Below are positions 6,386-64,000 of a DNA stretch of 64,000 nt, piece after piece (the first letter of the stretch is position 1; each line of letters begins with the position of its first letter). The position numbers and the translations under genes were made by a program. The DNA comes from Pseudomonadota bacterium (GTDB taxonomy: Bacteria; Pseudomonadota; Gammaproteobacteria; Burkholderiales; Burkholderiaceae_C), in assembly GCA_021808445.1 (NCBI GenBank), contig JAKBBP010000009.1, forward strand, positions 10,277 through 74,276. Direction: 5' to 3'. The notes under the pieces are model-generated. The model saw only the letters and a list, made by a program, of their open reading frames with translations, ran no database searches and was not told the origin of the DNA.

Positions 6386-8758
6386 ATGAATCACCGCACC
6401 CCACCGCCGGCCCTGCGCCGCAATCTGCTGTCCCACGCCGTGCTGCTGGCGCTGTGCGCCGCACCGGGCGTCGCCTGCGCACAGGCGGCAAGCACCGATC
6501 TGGGCACGGTGCAGGCCGGCGCACAGGCCGCCGGCGGCACCACGGCTGCGAAGACCAGCCAGGAACGAAAGATCAGCAAGAAGCAGGTGTTCAAGTCGGG
6601 GGTGTCCACCACCGTGCTGGACCGCCAGCAGATCCAGACCGCGGGCGCCTTCGGCGGTGCCGCGCAGGCGCTGCAGGTGGCGCCCGGCGTGGCCGTCAGC
6701 GGCTACGGCTCCACCGGCAGCACCAAGAACCAGATCAGCGTCAACGGCATCAAGCAGGGCTGGGGCGGATTCAGCGGCTCGCAGATCGACAACGGCTCGA
6801 TTTCCATGACCTTCGACGGGGTGCCCATGGCCAACCCCTCGACCGGTCTGTGGCAAAGCGACCTGGTGCCGCAGCTGGGCATGATCCAGGGCATCGGCGT
6901 GACCTACGGCCCCGGCGAACCCGCGGATCGCTGGTTCAACAACGTGGGCGGCCAGATCGCCTTCGTTCCGGTGCAGCCCACCGACAAGTTCGGCGGCACG
7001 GTCGGGGTGAGCGTGGGCAGCGACAGCGCGCGCAACCTCGACTTCGTGCTCAACACCGGCAGACACGACGGCTGGTCCACCGTGGTCGCCGGCGGCACCG
7101 GCTCGGCCGACAGCTACCGCACGGCCAGCGACGGCTTCAACAGCCACGGCAGCAACGAGGCCTTTTTCCTGAAGACCCGCAAGGACTTCCAGAACGGCAA
7201 TTTCTCGCTCGGCCTGTACAACGCGCGCAGCACCGCCTACCGGCCCTTCGCCGTGCCCACGCAGACCGTGCCCGGCCTGACCCTGGACGGCACCGCGGGC
7301 ACGCCCCTGTACAGCCAGCAGGCCTCGGGCTTCTACAGCACGATTCCCGGCTCGGTGTGGAACAAGAACGACACCAACGAGCTGCGCATCCTCTACGGCA
7401 AGCTCAACGTCGGGCTGGACGACAACGCGCGCCTGCACAACCTGATGTGGTACGAGCTGGAGAAGCGCATCCACGACCACTACAACAACTACGGCCTGAG
7501 CAATCCGGGCAACCTGTACGAGCACAACAACCCGCGCACCAGCAGCTACGGCGACAAGCTGTGGGTGGACGTGGCGCTGCCGCACAACCTGGTGTCGGTG
7601 GGCGGCTTCGTGCTCAAGAGCACCTACAACACACGCAACGCCTTCTACAACCCGGCCGACCTGGTGGGCACCTCGACCACGGTGTACGGCAGCCAGACCA
7701 CGCCCAACGCGCACTACCGCAGCGACTACTTCGACCAGACCGACCTGGCGCTGTTCGCGCAGGACAAGATCAGCCCGATCCGGCGCCTGGACATCACCCC
7801 GGGCATCCGTTTCATCAACTACGACACCGTGTACTCGCCGGCCGGGGCCTCGGACTTCCCGATCTCCTACCAGTACGCCCCCGGCAATGATCAGGGCAGT
7901 CAGCCCGGCTCGACCGCCAGCCATCACAAGATCGAGACCTCGATCAGCGCCAACTACCGCGCCCTGCCCTGGCTGGCCCTGTTCGGCAACTTCGCCCAGG
8001 CCTACAAGGAACCCCAGGTCGGCGGCGGCGGCGGCCTGTTCCAGAGCACCGCGCCCATCTACAACCTGGAAAAGAGCACGGACTACACCCTGGGCTTCAA
8101 GATGCACGTGCGTCGCGCCCAGTACCTGCACGACTTCCTGTTGTCGGTCTCGTACTACCACCTGCACTTCCAGAACCAGTACATCCCGCTGAGCGACGCC
8201 AACGGCAATTACATCGGCGACGCCAACGGGGATTCGACCTACCACGGCCTGAACCTGTCGCTGTCCGACGAGGTCGCCTACAACCTGGACGTGTTTGCCA
8301 ACGCCAACTTCGAGAAGGCGGTGTTCGACAACTACGTCACCGGGGGGACCAGCTACGCCGGCCTGCCGGTGTCGAACGTACCCGACAAGACCTTCACGGT
8401 CGGCGCCAACTACAAGGTCTACGGCGGTGGCGTGCTGTGGGTGCCCGGCATCAACTACCAGTACACCGGCGCGCAGTACATGTGGAGCGACCAGAGCAAC
8501 TCGCCCACCAACCAGAAGGCCCCCGCCTACGGGCTGTGGAACCTCACGCTGGACGGCACGGTGCCCATGCACGACGCCACCATCACCGACCTGAAGTTCC
8601 ACCTCGGGGTGCTCAACGCGACCGACAAGCAATACAACAACAGCGAGTTCATCAGCTTCCCCGGCGACTGGCTGGGCGGGAACACCACCGGCACCTATGT
8701 CCTGGGCATGCCGGGTGCCCCGCGCACCTTCTACGCCGGACTGAGCGCCGACTTCTAA
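6386..8758 (+). CDS. TonB-dependent outer-membrane receptor
   Basis: Signal peptide, plug region (AAQALQVAPGV...DGVPM), beta-barrel ending PGAPRTFYAGLSADF; adjacent exbBD-tonB; GGAG RBS before ATG 6386. Confidence 0.92.
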   Translation: MNHRTPPPALRRNLLSHAVLLALCAAPGVACAQAASTDLGTVQAGAQAAGGTTAAKTSQERKISKKQVFKSGVSTTVLDRQQIQTAGAFGGAAQALQVAPGVAVSGYGSTGSTKNQISVNGIKQGWGGFSGSQIDNGSISMTFDGVPMANPSTGLWQSDLVPQLGMIQGIGVTYGPGEPADRWFNNVGGQIAFVPVQPTDKFGGTVGVSVGSDSARNLDFVLNTGRHDGWSTVVAGGTGSADSYRTASDGFNSHGSNEAFFLKTRKDFQNGNFSLGLYNARSTAYRPFAVPTQTVPGLTLDGTAGTPLYSQQASGFYSTIPGSVWNKNDTNELRILYGKLNVGLDDNARLHNLMWYELEKRIHDHYNNYGLSNPGNLYEHNNPRTSSYGDKLWVDVALPHNLVSVGGFVLKSTYNTRNAFYNPADLVGTSTTVYGSQTTPNAHYRSDYFDQTDLALFAQDKISPIRRLDITPGIRFINYDTVYSPAGASDFPISYQYAPGNDQGSQPGSTASHHKIETSISANYRALPWLALFGNFAQAYKEPQVGGGGGLFQSTAPIYNLEKSTDYTLGFKMHVRRAQYLHDFLLSVSYYHLHFQNQYIPLSDANGNYIGDANGDSTYHGLNLSLSDEVAYNLDVFANANFEKAVFDNYVTGGTSYAGLPVSNVPDKTFTVGANYKVYGGGVLWVPGINYQYTGAQYMWSDQSNSPTNQKAPAYGLWNLTLDGTVPMHDATITDLKFHLGVLNATDKQYNNSEFISFPGDWLGGNTTGTYVLGMPGAPRTFYAGLSADF

Positions 8759-56666: not shown

Positions 56667-56870
56667 ATGAGCACGAATTCACGCCCCGGACGCAGCCGCA
56701 GCATCGACCACGACGCGATGTTCGCCCTCGCGCTGCAACGCGCCAGCGACTGCGAGCCGGCCCATGTCGTCCAGGAGCCCTGCGCGGCAAGCGTGCTGCT
56801 GGCCCGAGCCGGGCGCGTGTTCCCCTGCCCCTCGGGGGCGGCCGGTCGCGATCAGGTCCCGCCCACGTAG
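56667..56870 (+). CDS. Possible 67-aa hypothetical protein
   Basis: AGGAG RBS 6 nt before ATG; no recognised family. Confidence 0.4.
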   Translation: MSTNSRPGRSRSIDHDAMFALALQRASDCEPAHVVQEPCAASVLLARAGRVFPCPSGAAGRDQVPPT

Positions 56871-57490
56871 GGATTGCTGCGGCGCTCGACCCCGAATGTC
56901 GACTCCGGCCCGTGGCCGGGAATGAACACGGTCTCGTCGCCCATGGGCCACAGGCGCCCGACGATGCTGTCGATCAGCTGCTGGTGATTGCCGCGCGGAA
57001 AGTCGGTGCGCCCGATGGAACCGGCGAACAGCACGTCACCCACCCAGCAGCGCCGGGCCGGCGCATGGTGGAACACCACGTGCCCGGGCGTGTGCCCCGG
57101 GCAGTGCCGCACCTCGAACTCCAGCTCCCCGAGCCGCAGCTGGTCGCCGTCGACCAGCCAGCGCGCGGGCGTGAAGGCCTGCGCGGGCGGAAAGCCGAAC
57201 ATGCGCGACTGCTGAGGCAGCATGTCGATCCAGAACTGGTCGTCGCGGTGCGGCCCGATGATGGGCACCTCCAGGGTCTGCGCCAGTTCGCCGGCAGCGC
57301 CGGCATGGTCGATATGCGCATGGGTGAGCCAGATCGCACCCACGCGCAGATCTCGGCTACGGGCCTCCTCCACCAGGCGCTCGATCTCCCCCCCGGGATC
57401 CGTGAACACCGCCTCGCCGGTGGCGTCGTCCCAGAGCAGGCAGCAATTCTGGGCGAAGGGTGTGACGGGGAGGATCTGGTAGCGAAGCAT
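56852..57490 (-). CDS. MBL-fold metallo-hydrolase (YcbL/GloC-like)
   Basis: THAHIDH, PGHTPGH, GDVLF.GSIGRTD, PGHG. Confidence 0.92.
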   Translation of the reverse strand: MLRYQILPVTPFAQNCCLLWDDATGEAVFTDPGGEIERLVEEARSRDLRVGAIWLTHAHIDHAGAAGELAQTLEVPIIGPHRDDQFWIDMLPQQSRMFGFPPAQAFTPARWLVDGDQLRLGELEFEVRHCPGHTPGHVVFHHAPARRCWVGDVLFAGSIGRTDFPRGNHQQLIDSIVGRLWPMGDETVFIPGHGPESTFGVERRSNPYVGGT

Positions 57491-57505
57491 GGGGGTGAAA
57501 GGAAT

Positions 57506-57539
57506 CGGACAACAAAGTGCGAAAACGGACAACAAAGTG
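57506..57539. repeat. 14-bp direct repeat, 20-bp period
   Basis: CGGACAACAAAGTG at 57506 and 57526. Confidence 0.9.
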
Positions 57540-57932
57540 TAGAAGTCGACAGGCCGGCGCGCGCGAGGCCTCACGACAGAGTTCAGAAGCGCGTTGATTC
57601 TGCGGAACATTTTGCACGCGGCGCGTGGACTTCGCGACCGGCTGGGCGGCCGCATGCTGCGCAGTGGGCACGACGACTGGCTCGTCCTGCACCGCAATCG
57701 GGCGATAGCGGTGCCTACCGTTGTCAACGCTCCGCCCTCTCAGGCCCGGAGCGCTACTCGGCACGACCCATCCGGAACATGTTGCGGTTGCTGGAGAGCG
57801 GCACCTCGGCCAAAGCGGGCACTGGAATCAGCTAGTGACTGCGACCGCAATGCCACTGGCAGCGGTCGTCGACCTTGCCAGAATCCTTGCCAGCCTGGCC
57901 ATCCGCCCAGCCTGACTCGAGCCTAGCGGGAT

Positions 57933-59234
57933 CTACGGAACGCGAGGCGGTTCGGGCAGATCCACGCGCAGAACCAGACCGCTCCCGCTGTCGGGGCGAT
58001 CATGCAGGGAGATCTCCGCGCCGATTCGTCGCGCCGCCTCGCGTGCGATGGCCAGCCCCAGGCCCGTGCCCTGGCCCCCCCGCTCGTCGATGCGGTGGAA
58101 GGGCTTGAAGGCATCATCGCGCTGCTCCGGAGCAATCCCGGGGCCGCTGTCGACAACCTCGCAGCGTGCGCCTGCGCCAAGCGCTTCGATGCGCAGGGTC
58201 ACCTCGCCGCCGCCAGGCGTGTACTTCAGCGCGTTGTCGATCGCATTGCTCAGGATGGTGCGCAGCAACGCCGAGGAACTTTGCACCCTTACCGCGGCGG
58301 GCGCGTGCATGCCCAAGTCGATTCCCCGACCTTCGGCCACCGGGAAGTACGTCCCCAGCAACTCCCGCCCCAGCGCCACGAGGTCGATGCCATGCCTCGG
58401 CGCATCGGCGCTTTCGATGCGCGCGAGATCCAGCAGCTGCTCGCTCAGCCTGCTCGCGCGCTCGATGCCTTGCTCCAGCGGGAGCAGGCGCTGCCGAGCC
58501 TCCCCCAGGCTCCGCGCATGGCGCACGTTGCGCGCCTGCAGCGCGAGCGCCGTCAACGGCGAGCGCAGTTCGTGGGCGGCATCGGCGACGAAGCGCTGTT
58601 GTTGGTGCATCAGCTCGCGTGTGCGCTGCAGCAGCCCCTCGATGGCGTCGACGAACGGCTGGATCTCTGCCGGCATGGGGCCCAATTCCAGCGCGGGTCC
58701 TTCCAGGGCCGAGCGCGTCTCCAGGTGGCTGGCGGCGCGCGCGACCGGCTCGAACTCCCTGCGCACACCGCGGCCGATCAGCCAGATCAGCAGCGGCACA
58801 AGCAGCAGTGACGGCAGCAGCGCGCGAAGCGCACCGTTCCAGGCCAGTTCGTCCCTGGCGTCCGTGGCCTGGGCAACCACCGCGGTGTAGGGACCACGGG
58901 GTTGCACGAACACCCGCATACGGCCGGTGGGGCCGTCGACCGTGCTCAAGCCAGGGGGCGCCGCCGCGCTCAGCCACGAGGGTGTGGGATCGAGGGGCAG
59001 CATCGCCACGTGGATGCGCGAGTCGTGATCGTCGATGCCCGCACGCCACGGGGCCGCCAGTTCGTGACCAGGGTGCTGCAGCGCAAGCGCGGCCACCTGA
59101 CGCAGCATGTCGTCCTGCGACTCGCGCAGTTCGCGCCAGGCCAGCACGAACTGGGCCGCGGCCGCGAGCAGGCCCAGGCCCACGACGGCGATTCCGAGGT
59201 GCAGCAGAAGGCGTCGTTGGAAGGAGCTTTTCAT
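57933..59234 (-). CDS. Sensor histidine kinase (QseC/BasS-like)
   Basis: FVADAAHELRSP, NAIDNALKY, DSGPGI, GTGLGL; two TM. Confidence 0.93.
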   Translation of the reverse strand: MKSSFQRRLLLHLGIAVVGLGLLAAAAQFVLAWRELRESQDDMLRQVAALALQHPGHELAAPWRAGIDDHDSRIHVAMLPLDPTPSWLSAAAPPGLSTVDGPTGRMRVFVQPRGPYTAVVAQATDARDELAWNGALRALLPSLLLVPLLIWLIGRGVRREFEPVARAASHLETRSALEGPALELGPMPAEIQPFVDAIEGLLQRTRELMHQQQRFVADAAHELRSPLTALALQARNVRHARSLGEARQRLLPLEQGIERASRLSEQLLDLARIESADAPRHGIDLVALGRELLGTYFPVAEGRGIDLGMHAPAAVRVQSSSALLRTILSNAIDNALKYTPGGGEVTLRIEALGAGARCEVVDSGPGIAPEQRDDAFKPFHRIDERGGQGTGLGLAIAREAARRIGAEISLHDRPDSGSGLVLRVDLPEPPRVP

Positions 59235-59893
59235 CGCGCCTTGTCCACCATCCATCCCGCGCCGCGCACGTTCTTGATCATGTCGGCCCCGAGCTTCCTG
59301 CGCACGCCGTGGATCAGGAAGTCGACCGCGCTGCTCTCGACCTCCTCGTTCCAGCCGTACAGCCGGTCCTCGAGTTGGGCGCGGGTGAGAATGGTGCCCG
59401 GGCGCAGCAGCAGCGCATGCAGCAGCGCGAACTCGCGCGCGGTCAGCACTACGCGCACATCGCCGCGCCGTGCCTCGCGCGTCGCCGGATCGAGGCCCAC
59501 GTCGCCGTTGCCCAGCTCGGTGGCCGCCTGGCCGCCGTGGCGGCGCACTACGGCGCGCATGCGCGCCAGCAGTTCGTCCATGTCGAACGGTTTGACCACG
59601 TAGTCGTCGGCTCCGAGGTCGAGCCCGCGTACCCGGTCGGCGGCCGCGTCGCGGGCGGTGATCAGCAGCACCGGCACGCGGTCGCCCCGCTCGCGCAGGC
59701 GCTGCAGCACACTGAGGCCGTCGCGCCCGGGAAGCCCTATGTCGAGCAGCACGATCTGATGCTGGCCGTCGCGCAGCACGCGGTCGGCGGCTTCGCCGTC
59801 GCGCACGATGTCGACCGCGTAGGCGGCGTCGCGCAGCGCGACCTCAATCGCCGCCGCGATCATCGGGTCGTCCTCGATCAGCAGCGCGCGCAT
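59231..59893 (-). CDS. OmpR-family response regulator
   Basis: LLIEDD, LLDIGLP, GADDYVVKPF, NVRGAGW. Confidence 0.95.
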   Translation of the reverse strand: MRALLIEDDPMIAAAIEVALRDAAYAVDIVRDGEAADRVLRDGQHQIVLLDIGLPGRDGLSVLQRLRERGDRVPVLLITARDAAADRVRGLDLGADDYVVKPFDMDELLARMRAVVRRHGGQAATELGNGDVGLDPATREARRGDVRVVLTAREFALLHALLLRPGTILTRAQLEDRLYGWNEEVESSAVDFLIHGVRRKLGADMIKNVRGAGWMVDKAR

Positions 59894-59910
59894 CGTCCTT
59901 GCCTCGTGGC

Positions 59911-60672
59911 TCAGTGCGCGACGGCCGCGGCGCGCTGCGGCAGCAGGCGAAGCACGATCACCATGCCTCCGAGCAGAACGGCCGAGGCCGCGAACCGGCT
60001 GAGCTCGAGCCCTCCGGAGGCGATCGGCTTGTCGAGGAAATCCCCCAGTACGGCGCCCAACGGACGGGTCAGGATGAAGGCGGCCCAGAACAGCGCGGTG
60101 CGCGATGCGGCGGTGCGCCAGTACAGCAGCGCGACCACGGCCAGCGCCGAGCCGAACACCACGGCAGCACCCTGGTAGCCAAGCCCCGCCGTGTCGGCGC
60201 TCCAGTCGCCCAGGGCGGTACCCAGGGTCTGCGAAAACATGATGGTCACCCAGTAGAACACTTCGGCCTTGCCTGATTGCACACTGCCCACCGCGACACT
60301 GCCGGTGGAACGCTGCCAGAGCAGCAGCGAGGCGCCCAGCAGAGCCAGCAGCAGGCTCGTACCGCCAGCGTAGCCGATGCCCAGCGAGCGGTCGGCAAAA
60401 TCGGCCAGGGTGGTGCCCACCGTGGTCGTGGCGATGATGGTCGACCAGTACAAAACGGGGTGAAAGCGAATGGCGCGCATTTGCGCGAAAACCAGCGCGG
60501 CGAACAGAGCCGCGAAAATCCCCGTGGCGGCCAGGTAGCCCAGGTGCAGGGACATCGACACGGCGTCCCCGGCCGTCTCTCCGAGGGTCGTCGCGGCGAT
60601 CTTGAGCAGCCAGAAACCCAAAGTGGCTTCGGGGACCTTGGCAAGGACGGATTCAACGCTTGTGGTTGTCAT
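59911..60672 (-). CDS. COG4705-like membrane protein (internally repeated)
   Basis: KVPEATLGFW.LKI.ATTLGETAGD and repeat FYW.TI..SQTLGTALGD; ILTRPLGA..GD. Confidence 0.8.
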   Translation of the reverse strand: MTTTSVESVLAKVPEATLGFWLLKIAATTLGETAGDAVSMSLHLGYLAATGIFAALFAALVFAQMRAIRFHPVLYWSTIIATTTVGTTLADFADRSLGIGYAGGTSLLLALLGASLLLWQRSTGSVAVGSVQSGKAEVFYWVTIMFSQTLGTALGDWSADTAGLGYQGAAVVFGSALAVVALLYWRTAASRTALFWAAFILTRPLGAVLGDFLDKPIASGGLELSRFAASAVLLGGMVIVLRLLPQRAAAVAH

Positions 60673-60732
60673 GGGTCGGGAGGTGATCGAGGCGAGGGGC
60701 GGGCCCCGGCATCCGCCGGGGCCGCTTCGGGC

Positions 60733-61047
60733 TCAGTCCTTGTTCGCTCCCTCGACGCTGTCCTCGAGCACCTTGCCCGTCCTGGCGTCGACGCCGACTT
60801 CCCGTTCCCCCTGGGGAGTCTTCAGGTCGAAGGAATAGCGCAGTCCGCTACCGCCCTTTTCGCGTTCGAGTTCGCGATCGGTGATGGTCGCCCCGGGAAC
60901 GGCCTCGAGGGCGATCTGCGAAGCCTGCTCCATGGTGATGGCTGCGTCCTTCGCATACTTCTGGCCGTCGTAGGCATGCGCCGCGGTCGCGGCGATCAGG
61001 GCTGCGCCGGCGGCGCCGACGATGGCCAGGGTCTTGTGCAATTTCAT
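60733..61047 (-). CDS. Exported PepSY domain protein
   Basis: Signal peptide; ITMEQASQIAL..VPG...ELERE...YSFD...VDARTGKVL; AGGAG RBS. Confidence 0.9.
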   Translation of the reverse strand: MKLHKTLAIVGAAGAALIAATAAHAYDGQKYAKDAAITMEQASQIALEAVPGATITDRELEREKGGSGLRYSFDLKTPQGEREVGVDARTGKVLEDSVEGANKD

Positions 61048-61135
61048 GGAAACACTCCTGAGGATGATGGGCTCGACGGCCGGTTGGCCGTGGGCAGCGC
61101 CGATGCAGCGCATGAGCAGGAGTGTGCGCAGACAG

Positions 61136-61153
61136 ATTTAGCCCACATTTAGC
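61136..61153 (-). promoter_or_regulatory. 11-bp-period direct repeat upstream of PepSY operon
   Basis: Minus strand GCTAAAT-gtgg-GCTAAAT. Confidence 0.55.
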
Positions 61154-61517
61154 GCGAGGCGCGTCGTCGAGATGCGCCACGGTCAGGCGGTCTCGGTCAG
61201 GTCTGATTCGTAAGCGTATGTCAGCCTCAGGCGATTTGTCGGGGCATGGCGACACTGGAAAGCCGCGCAATTGCGAGGTTTGTCGCTTCAGCGAGCCACT
61301 TTTGTCCCGAATCAGCGACGCTTTCAGGCCCACGGCCCGGAATCGAGAGGACTCGAGGCTCCATCAAGGCCGGGATCCTGCTGATAACTCCTTGAAATCA
61401 AATGGGTATTTTCTTGTGGCACGCCGGTTGCGTTGTGCTCGGCAGGGTCCGACGCCCGGACCCTGCGGCCGCCATCGGCTGTGCCGTCTTGTAGAAACCT
61501 TCAAGAGGAGTTTTTCG

Positions 61518-61670
61518 ATGACTGCTTCCCGTACATTCGCCCGCCTGATCGTCGCCGCCGCCGCACTGTCCGCGCTGGCCAGCCCGCTGCTTGCCAACGC
61601 CGCGACCATGGCCCACCACCATGGCAAAACCGGCGCAGCCGCTCAGCAGTCGAAGGCCGCGAAGAAGTAA
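61518..61670 (+). CDS. 50-aa secreted His/Lys/Ala-rich peptide
   Basis: AAGAGGAG RBS; signal peptide ending ANA; mature ATMAHHHGKTGAAAQQSKAAKK; followed by terminator. Confidence 0.75.
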   Translation: MTASRTFARLIVAAAALSALASPLLANAATMAHHHGKTGAAAQQSKAAKK

Positions 61671-61689
61671 TCGCAGGCGAGCTCCAAGC

Positions 61690-61722
61690 AAGGCCGGTGG
61701 CGTTTGGCGCCCCGGCCTTTTT
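61690..61722 (+). terminator. Intrinsic terminator
   Basis: AAGGCCGG..GGCG/CGCC..CCGGCCTT then TTT. Confidence 0.8.
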
Positions 61723-61801
61723 CATGGCCGCGCGCCGCGCCTGCTATGTCGACGCTAAGAATGGGCGGGGATACTCGGCGAGTCCCATACCCTACTTGAC
61801 G

Positions 61802-62404
61802 ATGTACGCGATCCAGAATCTCAATCACACCTTGTTCCTGCTGCTCAATGCCGGCGCGGCCACGCCACGCTGGTGGATCGACCTGGCGGTCTTCGTCGCC
61901 AACGACCTCGTCTACGGCGTACCCGTGCTGCTGCTCGGACTGTGGCTTGCAGGTGGTACGTCGCGTCGCGGTGCCGCTCTCCTGGCCTTTGCGATCTCCA
62001 TGGTCGCGCTCGGGGCCAATCAGCTCATCGGACTCGCCTGGTACCAGCCTCGTCCCTTCGTGATCGGGCTGGGCCACACCTGGACGTCCCATGTGCCTGA
62101 CGCATCGTTTCCCAGCGACCACCTGACGCTTTTCACCTCCATCGGGCTGGGGCTGCTCCTCGGCGGGCTCAAACGCGTCGGCGCGGCGACCCTCGTCGTC
62201 GGACTGCTCGTCGGCTGGGCGAGGGTCTACGTCGGTTTGCACTTCCCGCTGGACATGGCAGGGTCGTTGATGGTCGCGACCCTGTGCAGCGCCGTCATCG
62301 TGCCGCTGTGGCAGAGCATCGGGGTGGCCTGCACGACTCGCCTCCAGAGCGTCTACAGGATGCTGTTGGCGCGCCCGATTGCCAGGGGCCTGCTGCGCGC
62401 CTGA
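61802..62404 (+). CDS. PAP2 undecaprenyl-diphosphatase (BcrC/YbjG-like)
   Basis: YQPRPF, SFPSDH, RVYVGLHFPLD. Confidence 0.9.
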   Translation: MYAIQNLNHTLFLLLNAGAATPRWWIDLAVFVANDLVYGVPVLLLGLWLAGGTSRRGAALLAFAISMVALGANQLIGLAWYQPRPFVIGLGHTWTSHVPDASFPSDHLTLFTSIGLGLLLGGLKRVGAATLVVGLLVGWARVYVGLHFPLDMAGSLMVATLCSAVIVPLWQSIGVACTTRLQSVYRMLLARPIARGLLRA

Positions 62405-62578
62405 CGAGAACCGATCAGTGCGCTTCGAATCCTCGCGAGCGCCACCCGGCCCGGGGGCAGGCGCAGCAGCCTCAGTCGAGGCTAAGTCGCTCCTGGTAGG
62501 GTCTCGCCGCTTTCATCCCCGCGCGGACCGTCCGTCTCCGTGGCCGTGCGTTGTTCGCCCGCTTGCTCAAGGCTTCGC

Positions 62579-63652
62579 ATGACATCCTCGATCTCCCGTC
62601 TTCTGTCTGGCCTCATCCTCCTGGCATGTGTCGCTGGCATGGTGCAGGCAGCGCCCATTTCCCAGCAAGTTCGTACGATCCACGTGCCCGGCCATTCCTT
62701 GCGGAGTTTCGATATCGGCTACGCACAGGACGGCGTGTACGCCTTCGCCGACCGTTCCAACCACGGTATAGACCTGATCGACACACGTACCTTGCGATTC
62801 CTGGGCCGTGTGCCTGGCTTCGCAGGGCCGAGGAGCGGGGGCGAAGGTGGTCCCAACGGCGTGCTCATCGCGCAGGGAAAGCAAGTCTGGGCAGGTGACG
62901 GTGCCAGCCGGGTTCGCGTGGCGGACATTGCTTCGCGCCGCATCGTCGCCACCATCTCGACCGGCGGCAAAAAGCGCGTGGACGAACTCGCATACGACCC
63001 GCGGGACCATCTGGTGATCGCCGCGAATAACGCGGATCATCCGCCCTTCCTCAGCTTCATCTCCACCCGAGCTCCCTACCGCGTTCGCGCTCGCCTGATG
63101 CTGCCTCAGGCCACCGACGGATTGGAGCAGCCGCTATGGGATGCGCGCAGCGGCATGGTGTACGTGGCCGTTCCGCAATGGAGCGACATTGCGGCCCAAG
63201 GAGGGGTTGCGGTGATCGACCCGCGCAGCGCACGCCTGGTGGGCATGCACGAGCTGAGTCGATGCATGCCCGCGGGACTGGCGCTCGGTCCTGGCGGCAA
63301 GCTGCTGGTCGGCTGCAGCGACGACGCGGTCGCTGCCGGCTTCGAGGCGAAGACCCTTCTGATCGACCCCGCCTCCGGCAAGCTCCTGCGGACCTACGAT
63401 CAAGTCGGCGGGTCCGACGAGGTCTGGTACGACCGGGCGCTTGGCGACTTCCTGCTCGCGGCCGTGGCCAACCCGGGTGGGCCGGTGCTGGGGGTGATCG
63501 ATGCGCGCGATGGGCGCTGGATCGCCAACCTTCCCAGCGGCCGTCATGCCCATTCCGTGGCAGCGGATCCGATCGACGGACGCGCCTTCGTTCCGGTGGC
63601 TGCGGGCGACAGCGCCTGCGCCGACGGTTGCGTGAAAGTGTTCGGGAAGTGA
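62579..63652 (+). CDS. Secreted beta-propeller protein (YncE-like)
   Basis: Signal peptide; SFDIG, GPNGV, RVDELAYD, GSDEVWYD, HAHSVAAD. Confidence 0.7.
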   Translation: MTSSISRLLSGLILLACVAGMVQAAPISQQVRTIHVPGHSLRSFDIGYAQDGVYAFADRSNHGIDLIDTRTLRFLGRVPGFAGPRSGGEGGPNGVLIAQGKQVWAGDGASRVRVADIASRRIVATISTGGKKRVDELAYDPRDHLVIAANNADHPPFLSFISTRAPYRVRARLMLPQATDGLEQPLWDARSGMVYVAVPQWSDIAAQGGVAVIDPRSARLVGMHELSRCMPAGLALGPGGKLLVGCSDDAVAAGFEAKTLLIDPASGKLLRTYDQVGGSDEVWYDRALGDFLLAAVANPGGPVLGVIDARDGRWIANLPSGRHAHSVAADPIDGRAFVPVAAGDSACADGCVKVFGK

Positions 63653-63683
63653 CGTCTCCCTACGCCTGCATCTTGGAATCATC

Positions 63684-64000
63684 GTGAAGCTGTTGCTCGT
63701 GGAAGACGACGAGATGATCGCCGAGGCGGTCAGCACGGCGCTCGGGGATGCGGGCTATGACGTGCAGGTCGCCCGAGACGGCGACAGCGCCAATAGCGCA
63801 CTGCGTGAGCACGCCTACCAGATGGTCCTGCTGGACATCACGCTGCCGCGGGTAGATGGACTGAGTCTGCTGCGCCTGCTGCGCCTTCGAGAAGACTGGG
63901 TCCCGGTGATCCTCATCACGGCACGTCACGAAGTCGTGCACCGGGCCGAGGGCCTGGATCTTGGAGCCGACGACTACGTCGTCAAGCCCTTCGACATCGT
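63684..64000 (+). CDS. Second OmpR-family response regulator, truncated by window end
   Basis: GTG-KLLLVEDDEMIAEAV...LLDITLP...GADDYVVKPFDI; not in ORF track. Confidence 0.9.
   Translation, partial: MKLLLVEDDEMIAEAVSTALGDAGYDVQVARDGDSANSALREHAYQMVLLDITLPRVDGLSLLRLLRLREDWVPVILITARHEVVHRAEGLDLGADDYVVKPFDI

Follow-up and report, generated by a model that had tools for sequence, protein, structure and literature searches.

The locus described here occupies positions 57933 to 64000 of a 64,000-nucleotide stretch of contig JAKBBP010000009.1 (assembly GCA_021808445.1), from a Pseudomonadota bacterium of the GTDB family Burkholderiaceae_C; the whole stretch is referred to below as the window. The locus consists of two divergent arms, which bring together a two-component system, a secreted PepSY protein, a membrane protein of the DUF347 (COG4705) family and a PAP2 phosphatase, accompanied by a small secreted peptide, a beta-propeller protein and a second regulator. 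A first reading of the letters alone (the original prediction) had named this two-arm gene set, and it is confirmed: all eight genes were found, at the same coordinates, in an open reading frame (ORF) list combined with family scans. The features of the locus are as follows.

57933-59255, minus strand: HK1, sensor histidine kinase of the QseC/PmrB class, mmfS-like (Pfam HisKA and HATPase_c)
59231-59893, minus strand: RR1, response regulator of the OmpR/PhoB family, mmfR-like (Response_reg and Trans_reg_C)
59911-60672, minus strand: DUF347/COG4705 membrane protein, mmfC2 orthologue (four PF03988 repeats, E 5e-58)
60733-61047, minus strand: small, secreted, single-domain PepSY protein, 104 aa (PF03413, E 1e-11; predicted signal peptide ending ...AHA/YD)
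61136-61153, no strand assigned: direct repeat ATTTAGC-N4-ATTTAGC with an 11-bp period, candidate RR1 operator
61518-61670, plus strand: ORF of 50 codons for a secreted His-rich peptide (ribosome-binding site AAGAGGAG; signal peptide with an ANA/A cleavage site)
61690-61724, plus strand: terminator-like hairpin and U-run 3' of the peptide ORF (13-bp GC-rich stem, then UUUUU)
61802-62404, plus strand: PAP2 lipid-(pyro)phosphate phosphatase, mmfB-like and YbjG-type (PF01569; NF008813, E 5e-44)
62579-63652, plus strand: secreted seven-bladed beta-propeller (AlphaFold2 model and Protein Data Bank (PDB) fold match)
63684-64000, plus strand: RR2, second OmpR-type regulator, N-terminal 105 residues in the window (Response_reg)

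The genes of the minus arm lie in the order PepSY-DUF347-RR1-HK1, with intergenic gaps of 60 and 17 nt followed by one 25-nt overlap between the RR1 stop and the HK1 start, and form a single tightly spaced operon in which the PepSY gene comes first. The PepSY gene truly starts not at position 61113 but at 61047, with an ATG preceded by an AGGAG ribosome-binding site. The plus arm runs from the peptide through PAP2 and the propeller to RR2. Custom hidden Markov models found one PepSY gene, three PAP2 domains and 36 response regulators in this genome of 3.4 Mb; since the only PepSY gene and two of the three PAP2 domains fall in this locus, the clustering exceeds what chance would produce.

This gene content recalls the mmf cassette, which is carried by transposon Tn6048 of Cupriavidus metallidurans CH34 and by the Variovorax IncP-1 plasmids pHB44 and pBS64 (PMC4914505). 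On annotated plasmid pHB44 the order is mmfA (PepSY), mmfB (PAP2), mmfC1 (DUF347), mmfD (secreted), mmfC2 (DUF347), mmfR, mmfS and a short eamA. Five protein types are common to both loci, namely PepSY, PAP2/UppP, DUF347, an OmpR-type regulator and a kinase, as is the order DUF347-RR-HK. The DUF347 protein is 73% identical to mmfC2 over 250 aa without gaps, and 35% identical to mmfC1; RR1 shares 63% identity with mmfR, HK1 37% with mmfS over its full length, and PAP2 47% with mmfB. Similarity between the PepSY protein and mmfA was undetectable in pairwise comparison, though a PepSY domain is present here. The two loci also differ in several respects. Whereas mmf is one co-directional operon on a tni/resolvase-type transposon, the genes here are split between two divergent arms on the chromosome, and no transposase or resolvase was seen in the flanks. 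The second DUF347 gene (mmfC1) and mmfD, which separate mmfB from mmfC2, were not found in this locus, and eamA is also absent; conversely, only the present locus has the peptide and the propeller, along with a TonB set enclosed by a split paralogous two-component system, an ATPase-PAP2 fusion and a lipid methyltransferase. Judged by these sequence comparisons, the locus is a rearranged chromosomal variant of the mmf-type envelope module rather than a new kind of system.

The Tn6048 cassette was described in 2010, in the genome paper of C. metallidurans CH34, as strongly induced by Zn and Pb (PMC2864759); later papers (PMC4914505, PMC12029693) offer no mechanism and speak of mmf as a 'multiple metal' response. 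Pb up-regulates three paralogous DUF347-UppP operons of Frankia, and the DUF347 proteins were proposed there to be metal exporters (PMC4531530). The module is thus not unrecognised, as the word 'uncharacterised' in the original prediction had implied, being a variant of a named cassette which is itself mechanistically unsolved. The acid/metal envelope regulon that had been proposed survives in its metal-stress part only, none of the findings having a bearing on acid sensing; the metal-stress part fits the induction of Tn6048 by Zn and Pb (PMC2864759) and of the Frankia operons by Pb (PMC4531530). The prediction had also turned on whether these genes occur together elsewhere, and the set recurs in the mmf cassette of Tn6048, in nine of the 28 other species genomes of the genus and in other phyla.

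Within the genus the distribution is patchy: those nine genomes carry a DUF347 orthologue of 82-97% identity, in one case as two copies. Synteny mapping of ten orthologous genus loci recovered PepSY-DUF347-RR1-HK1 in every one, with the PepSY protein 73-95% conserved, and the divergent PAP2 gene in five of the ten. The peptide and the propeller, besides this genome, occur in only one other genus locus, designated L012. The conserved core is PepSY-DUF347-RR-HK, to which a PAP2 gene may be added. By genus synteny the second regulator, the propeller and the peptide, which had been counted as members of the module, are variable add-ons. A three-repeat DUF347 paralogue (~37% identity) is found in this genome on the minus strand at the very end of another contig (C34:27540-28250, locus L022), and in several genus relatives such a paralogue is convergent with HK1, directly beside the module.

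Outside the genus, a sample of 80 loci with mmfC2-like DUF347 genes, all 59-73% identical to the query, covered Proteobacteria, Bdellovibrionota, Verrucomicrobiota, Acidobacteriota, Myxococcota and others. The neighbours of DUF347 in these loci include a response regulator and kinase immediately downstream (~24), PepSY (18), a second DUF347 (17), an outer-membrane barrel (12), PAP2 (10) and a YVTN-type propeller (9). In a sample drawn evenly from within the phylum, DUF347 occurred in 33 of 251 genomes, and these 33 loci held a two-component system within 6 kb in 12 cases, a regulator-kinase pair immediately downstream in seven, PepSY in three and PAP2 in two. Against a crude control that takes the base rates of one genome, regulators are enriched near DUF347 roughly 3-fold, PAP2 5- to 10-fold or more, and PepSY well over 10-fold. 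Six-frame ORF clustering of the neighbours, which was contaminated by antisense frames of conserved genes, added only the propeller, the outer-membrane barrel and EamA as recurrent neighbours. Gallionella metagenome-assembled genomes (MAGs) show the order P1B heavy-metal ATPase, EamA, methyltransferase, PepSY, DUF347, DUF347, RR, HK (L035/L036, 2319-10725). Gallionella is an iron oxidiser, and its mmf-like cluster directly adjoins a classical Zn/Cd/Pb-type pump.

The direct repeat ATTTAGC-N4-ATTTAGC, 89 bp upstream of the PepSY start codon, occurs only once in the window and did not occur in 100 shuffles; it is also the sole such site in the 3.38-Mb genome at up to 2 mismatches. The box is found at the same place in all ten genus orthologous loci, even where the PepSY protein is only 73-74% identical, and from its sequence and position it is likely to be the RR1 binding site. 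In relatives whose intergenic region is short (~250 bp) the box stands between PAP2 and the PepSY operon, so that a single dimer of the regulator bound there could act on both promoters. The box and PAP2 are set apart in the window and in L012 by an insert of ~530 bp that carries the peptide gene with its terminator, and the other orthologous loci lack this insert. No exact match to the box turned up in the Tn6048 stretch. GCTAAG elements upstream of PAP2 (61753) and of the propeller (62479) were considered as operators and rejected, as each holds one half-site only and matches at 11 of 20 and 9 of 20 positions, respectively; the element upstream of PAP2 may simply be a -10 region. Relaxation of the motif to TTAGC-N6-TTAGC gave a sole other genomic match, at contig C48:170-190 (GGGCTAAGTCTGGGCTAAGGC). 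This site lies 35 bp upstream of an ORF resembling cytochrome b561 (MNQSAEITVYNPVARALHWS...), and, going by sequence, the gene may be a further target of RR1 or RR2.

Among the curated NCBIfam models, RR1 scores best with PmrA (214 bits, E 2e-63, cut-off 330), followed by QseB (194 bits, cut-off 345), and HK1 matches QseC (180 bits, cut-off 475) and PmrB (119 bits, cut-off 314). PmrAB (BasRS) and QseBC of Enterobacteria belong to the same regulator and kinase families, but the scores are far under the equivalog cut-offs; the QseBC/PmrAB-like assignment made in the original prediction does not hold at the level of these models, no curated PmrAB or QseBC cut-off being reached. The candidate operator is, like that of PmrA, a direct repeat of a hexamer or heptamer with an 11-bp period, but the half-site differs, being ATTTAGC here and CTTAAT in the PmrA box. 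Lipid A modification genes, a further difference from PmrAB, were not seen in this locus. The periplasmic domain of HK1 spans ~105 aa, and the kinases that adjoin DUF347, HK1 included, share the sensor-domain motifs QDDxLRQ.A, DxESR and RDEIA.

The placement of a small secreted single-PepSY gene first, followed by an OmpR-type regulator and a kinase with a periplasmic sensor, also resembles DbfQ-DbfRS of Vibrio cholerae and BqsPQ-BqsRS of Pseudomonas aeruginosa; the likeness is one of gene order, signal peptide and single PepSY domain, and a difference is that a DUF347 gene is inserted here between PepSY and the regulator. In V. cholerae the gene for the PepSY protein DbfQ precedes dbfRS, and DbfQ controls the activity of DbfS by binding to the sensor domain of this kinase; the pairing of PepSY and two-component system genes is more than 60-fold enriched across bacteria (PMC12714742).

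The DUF347 protein has eight transmembrane helices arranged as four two-helix repeats, and its AlphaFold2 model is of high confidence (predicted local distance difference test, pLDDT, 92.4; predicted template modelling score, pTM, 0.89). In alignments each repeat holds an invariant Trp near the start of its first helix and G-x-x-x-(G/A)-D near its end; the four motifs read GETAGD36, GTTLAD91, GTALGD156 and GAVLGD211, and repeat 4 contains an invariant TRP motif. Nine Lys/Arg residues fall in the N-terminus, the even-to-odd loops and the C-terminus, against three in the odd-to-even loops, and because of this distribution (the positive-inside rule) the termini are predicted to be cytoplasmic and the aspartates periplasmic. 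D36, D91, D156 and D211, together with E32, D94, D159 and D214, would accordingly sit at the periplasmic ends of the odd helices. The structure search that the original prediction had suggested gave no PDB fold match: Foldseek comparison of the DUF347 model with the PDB returned no solved relative, the best match being NarK (E 0.2, template modelling score 0.28-0.34, thus below 0.4), and function can therefore not be borrowed from structure. A profile search of 1.84 billion representatives placed 5,077 clusters (at 50% identity) in the family at E 1e-10 or better, and the family has also been reported in eukaryotic algae (PMC9756366). The literature label 'metal transporter' for DUF347 is guilt by association only.

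Twenty unusually long DUF347 members were scanned for a second Pfam domain. Two of them are single-ORF fusions of PAP2 and DUF347, from independent assemblies and with different subtypes of both domains:

P0260, PAP2-DUF347 fusion, on a Logan SRR26965289 contig (L154)
P0333, PAP2-DUF347 fusion, 475 aa, in NCBI MAG GCA_038325285.1 (L153, 3605-5032)

P0333 is followed on its 3' side by two small ORFs, a TehB/MTS-type methyltransferase and a convergent RND pump. No second Pfam domain was found in a 407-aa ORF in L037 that extends beyond DUF347, or in most other long DUF347 proteins. In both fusions the PAP2 domain comes first and DUF347 second. The C-terminus of PAP2 enzymes of the PgpB/BcrC type is cytoplasmic and their site of action is the outer face of the membrane, and for this reason the order of domains fits the topology predicted for DUF347. 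These two independent fusions strengthen a functional link between COG4705 and PAP2.

A third PAP2 arrangement lies beyond the right edge of the window, on the continuation of the same contig, where three genes of relevance are found at the following window-equivalent positions.

70631-71917: HK2, the partner kinase of RR2 (same contig, 7 kb beyond the window)
72016-72759, minus strand: PmtA/OlsG-like lipid N-methyltransferase (PmtA E 9e-34; both models under their cut-off)
72796-76086 (contig C35:83072-86362): fusion of a P-type ATPase and PAP2, 1096 aa (E1-E2_ATPase and HAD domains)

The C-terminal 200 residues of the ATPase fusion form a complete PAP2 domain with the motifs K-x6-RP, PSDH and SR-x5-H-x3-D. 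In three genus relatives the ATPase-PAP2 gene directly follows the stand-alone PAP2 gene. The canonical PAP2 motifs are KX6RP, PSGH and SRX5HX3D; in the stand-alone PAP2 of the window they read G-x6-RP, PSDH and AR-x5-H-x3-D, with the catalytic His and Asp kept. This protein scores 150.6 bits against NF008813, the model for YbjG-type undecaprenyl-diphosphate phosphatases (cut-off 229), and a sequence search of solved chains found only the lipid A phosphatase LpxE (6EBU, E 3e-6). Since the fusion partner of PAP2 is a cation pump in this locus and DUF347 in other organisms, DUF347 would by analogy be the cation-handling partner of PAP2.

Such a partnership has a precedent in the export-and-precipitate model for PbrA and PbrB, in which a PAP2 undecaprenyl-pyrophosphate phosphatase acts beside a cation exporter and the released phosphate precipitates the exported metal (PMC3431237). 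The likeness to PbrA/PbrB(C) of C. metallidurans pMOL30 lies in the placement of PAP2 beside a cation pump, and the P-type pump fused to PAP2 near the present locus may be regarded as resembling PbrA and PbrB joined in one chain, while elsewhere it is DUF347 that is fused to PAP2. The systems differ in regulation, which is by the MerR-type PbrR there and by a two-component system here, and in the local pump, which is not of the P1B class; an exporter role for DUF347 would be a further step of reasoning. We consider it somewhat better than an even chance that the locus encodes a metal-responsive mmf-type envelope module that couples cation handling to phosphate release. In the mechanism that we infer, HK1 would sense a periplasmic cation or envelope signal, with its activity tuned by the secreted PepSY protein through the sensor domain, as DbfQ does with DbfS, and would phosphorylate RR1; phosphorylated RR1 would then bind the box and activate transcription of both its own operon and the PAP2 gene. 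DUF347 would bind or conduct divalent metal cations at the outer face of the inner membrane, where PAP2 would free phosphate from undecaprenyl pyrophosphate, so that the metal would be immobilised as phosphate outside the cytoplasm. The neighbouring ATPase-PAP2 fusion may do the same job in one protein, and the second two-component system and its TonB set, like the peptide and the propeller, would be lineage-specific additions in a metal-handling neighbourhood.

A more specific proposal concerns the DUF347 family itself, and we put it forward tentatively: that DUF347 is a new class of membrane protein, a pseudo-fourfold bundle of eight helices with a periplasmic ring of aspartates that conducts or captures divalent cations in contact with PAP2, with the metal immobilised by the released phosphate and the mmf-type two-component system and PepSY protein acting as a dedicated metal switch.

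Several observations weigh against coupling of cation handling to phosphate release. About half of the DUF347 loci, in the 80-locus and 33-locus samples alike, have no partner gene of any kind, and PAP2 is a minority partner, present in 6-12% of loci. The stand-alone PAP2 lacks the canonical motif-1 Lys, with Gly in its place as in mmfB, and is under the YbjG cut-off. The ATPase of the fusion is not of the heavy-metal P1B class, having PQGL in TM4 (its fourth transmembrane helix) and best models of the H+, Ca and Mg types. The periplasmic placement of the DUF347 aspartates comes from the positive-inside rule applied to sequence, and its putative channel or transporter nature from the position of its motifs and from analogy, with no matching solved fold. 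A rival is a scheme of lipid-carrier recycling, in which PAP2 would dephosphorylate undecaprenyl pyrophosphate on the periplasmic side, DUF347 would return undecaprenyl phosphate or present the pyrophosphate across the membrane, and the two-component system would raise the supply of carrier under envelope stress. DedA/UptA and DUF368/PopT, which are undecaprenyl-phosphate translocases, serve as models. The single-ORF PAP2-DUF347 fusions in two independent lineages and the adjacency of the genes fit such a scheme, as does the YbjG-type undecaprenyl-diphosphate phosphatase as best family for PAP2, and no solved transporter fold contradicts it. The conserved polar residues of DUF347, however, are acidic and at predicted periplasmic helix ends, where they suit cations better than the head group of a phosphate; metals are the inducers reported (PMC2864759, PMC4531530), PAP2 is missing from the neighbourhood of most DUF347 genes, the family also occurs in eukaryotic algae (PMC9756366), and the fusion of PAP2 to a cation pump in the same locus favours a cation partner. 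We regard this scheme as unlikely. The original prediction had left COG4705 as a handler of either lipid carrier or cations; its lipid-carrier part is possible and less favoured, and the acidic periplasmic residues suit its cation part better.

A role for DUF347 as a membrane-embedded co-sensor, rather than a transporter, is improbable to a similar degree. DUF347 would here set the balance of kinase and phosphatase activity of HK1 together with PepSY, in the way that LiaF and the BceAB permease modulate their kinases, and PAP2 and the other genes would be outputs. The regulator-kinase pair is the strongest and most widespread partner of DUF347 (immediately downstream in ~24 of 80 and 7 of 33 loci), the adjoining kinases form one sensor-domain family with shared motifs, and a PepSY protein has been shown by experiment to modulate a kinase (PMC12714742). 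Against this, more than half of the DUF347 genes have no two-component system within 6 kb, the fusion to PAP2 is hard to explain for a pure signalling accessory, and a conserved biochemical activity is suggested by the pairing of C1 and C2 paralogues and by identities of 60-70% across phyla; co-sensing and cation handling are not mutually exclusive. Remodelling of lipopolysaccharide in the manner of PmrAB or ColRS would have the two-component system sense Fe(III), Al(III), Zn or low pH and PAP2 act as a lipid A 1-phosphatase or an LpxT-like phosphotransferase that alters surface charge. This is less probable again: PmrA is the best curated model for RR1 (E 2e-63), HK1 matches both QseC and PmrB, LpxE (6EBU) is the only solved chain that PAP2 finds by sequence, and a PmtA/OlsG-like lipid N-methyltransferase is nearby, but the PmrA and PmrB scores stop at 214 against 330 and 119 against 314 bits, with QseBC also far below its cut-offs, arn, eptA and other lipid A modification genes are absent from the locus, PAP2 matches the YbjG-type model far better than LpxE, and DUF347 would be left without a role. 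Least probable, and in our judgement very much so, is a cluster that serves TonB-dependent acquisition of iron or a metallophore, with the propeller and PepSY as periplasmic handling proteins. The propeller is followed after 31 bp by RR2 and then by a TonB-dependent receptor, TonB, ExbB and two ExbD, a propeller homologue in Dyella is also followed by a TonB-dependent receptor, and an uptake role was proposed for mmf on the Variovorax plasmids (PMC4914505); yet the closest syntenic relative keeps the peptide, PAP2 and the propeller without the TonB block, a 97% orthologue of the receptor occurs in only one other genus genome, the Dyella receptor is only 20% identical, and most mmf-type loci of the 80-locus sample have no TonB genes.

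If coupling of cation handling to phosphate release is correct, it would constitute a widespread metal-tolerance mechanism, of relevance to organisms of acid mine drainage and to bioremediation; the DUF347 family, with its ~5,000 clusters, ranges from Proteobacteria, Acidobacteriota and Verrucomicrobiota to polar algae. To the mmf cassette this locus and its relatives add a candidate operator, a minimal core, a predicted topology for the aspartates and evidence from fusions that points to DUF347 as the cation partner of PAP2.

The additions to the core differ in character. The mature secreted peptide has ~22 aa (ATMAHHHGKTGAAAQQSKAAKK) and is 92% identical at the amino-acid level between this genome and L012, with 6 synonymous and 4 non-synonymous changes. 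The hairpin that follows its ORF has a predicted energy of -25 kcal/mol (z -1.8), is conserved in L012, and is present as a remnant in L018. The AlphaFold2 model of the propeller (pLDDT 92.3) has seven blades, with the YVTN propeller 1L0Q as best PDB fold match (E 2e-14). The fold search returned only generic seven-bladed propellers (YVTN domain, Lp49, WDR5), which confirms the fold and gives no function; by sequence, at E up to 1, the PDB yielded 1L0Q, Prp4 and a chaperonin and nothing else, none of these chains being named YncE, and the best Pfam matches are under their cut-offs. Databases label the homologues as 'YncE family' or 'cd1 nitrite-reductase-like', and the name 'cytochrome c nitrite reductase', also given to this family, was judged a wrong label. 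Across 36 homologues of 51-82% identity, C229 and C246, the C-terminal pair C347-x3-C351 and H325 are invariant, which suggests disulfides or a metal or redox site. These homologues adjoin RND efflux pumps in Paraburkholderia, Dyella and Pandoraea; other neighbours are a P-type ATPase (Pandoraea), a membrane-fusion protein (T. arsenitoxydans) and, in one case, fragments of a cation diffusion facilitator; one homologue has a weak PepSY match. The propeller and a TonB-dependent receptor were considered as a conserved pair and rejected, the Dyella receptor being only 20% identical and the closest relative having no TonB block.

RR2 has a full length of 219 aa, extending to position 64343, and starts 31 bp after the propeller stop. 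It is followed on the contig continuation by a TonB-dependent receptor, TonB, ExbB, two ExbD, a TPR protein and then HK2. RR2 and HK2 are the closest paralogues of RR1 and HK1, with 59% and 54% identity, respectively. RR2, which the original prediction had taken as an extra regulator of the module, thus opens a split two-component system, paralogous to RR1-HK1, whose two genes enclose a set for TonB-dependent uptake. By sequence comparison this 8.3-kb block from RR2 to HK2 appears to be an addition in this genome, because in the closest syntenic relative, L012, the block is missing and the propeller is joined directly to the methyltransferase and the ATPase-PAP2 fusion. A 97% orthologue of the receptor of the block was seen in just one other genus genome. 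A paralogous TonB-dependent receptor is encoded in the window at 6386-8755 and is 38-40% identical to the receptor of the block; its orthologues (39-43% identity to the query) are those found in most genus genomes. Methyltransferase genes are also found beside mmf-like or propeller genes in Gallionella (L035), in T. arsenitoxydans (L111) and next to the PAP2-DUF347 fusion of L153.

The locus is flanked on one side by housekeeping genes, for a KpsF-like protein, an MFS transporter, a phosphoribosyltransferase-like ORF (named from its sequence) and a metallo-beta-lactamase-fold hydrolase, and on the other by transport genes. No transposase-like or resolvase ORFs were seen in these flanks in the ORF lists of the window and of the contig continuation. 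In one relative (L011; genome G006, contig C107:31001-51000), compared with window positions 56852-62404, the module adjoins the same metallo-beta-lactamase-fold gene in inverted orientation. The inversion beside this gene, the presence of the module in about one-third of the genus and its two copies in one genome suggest mobility or recombination of the module without a visible transposase.

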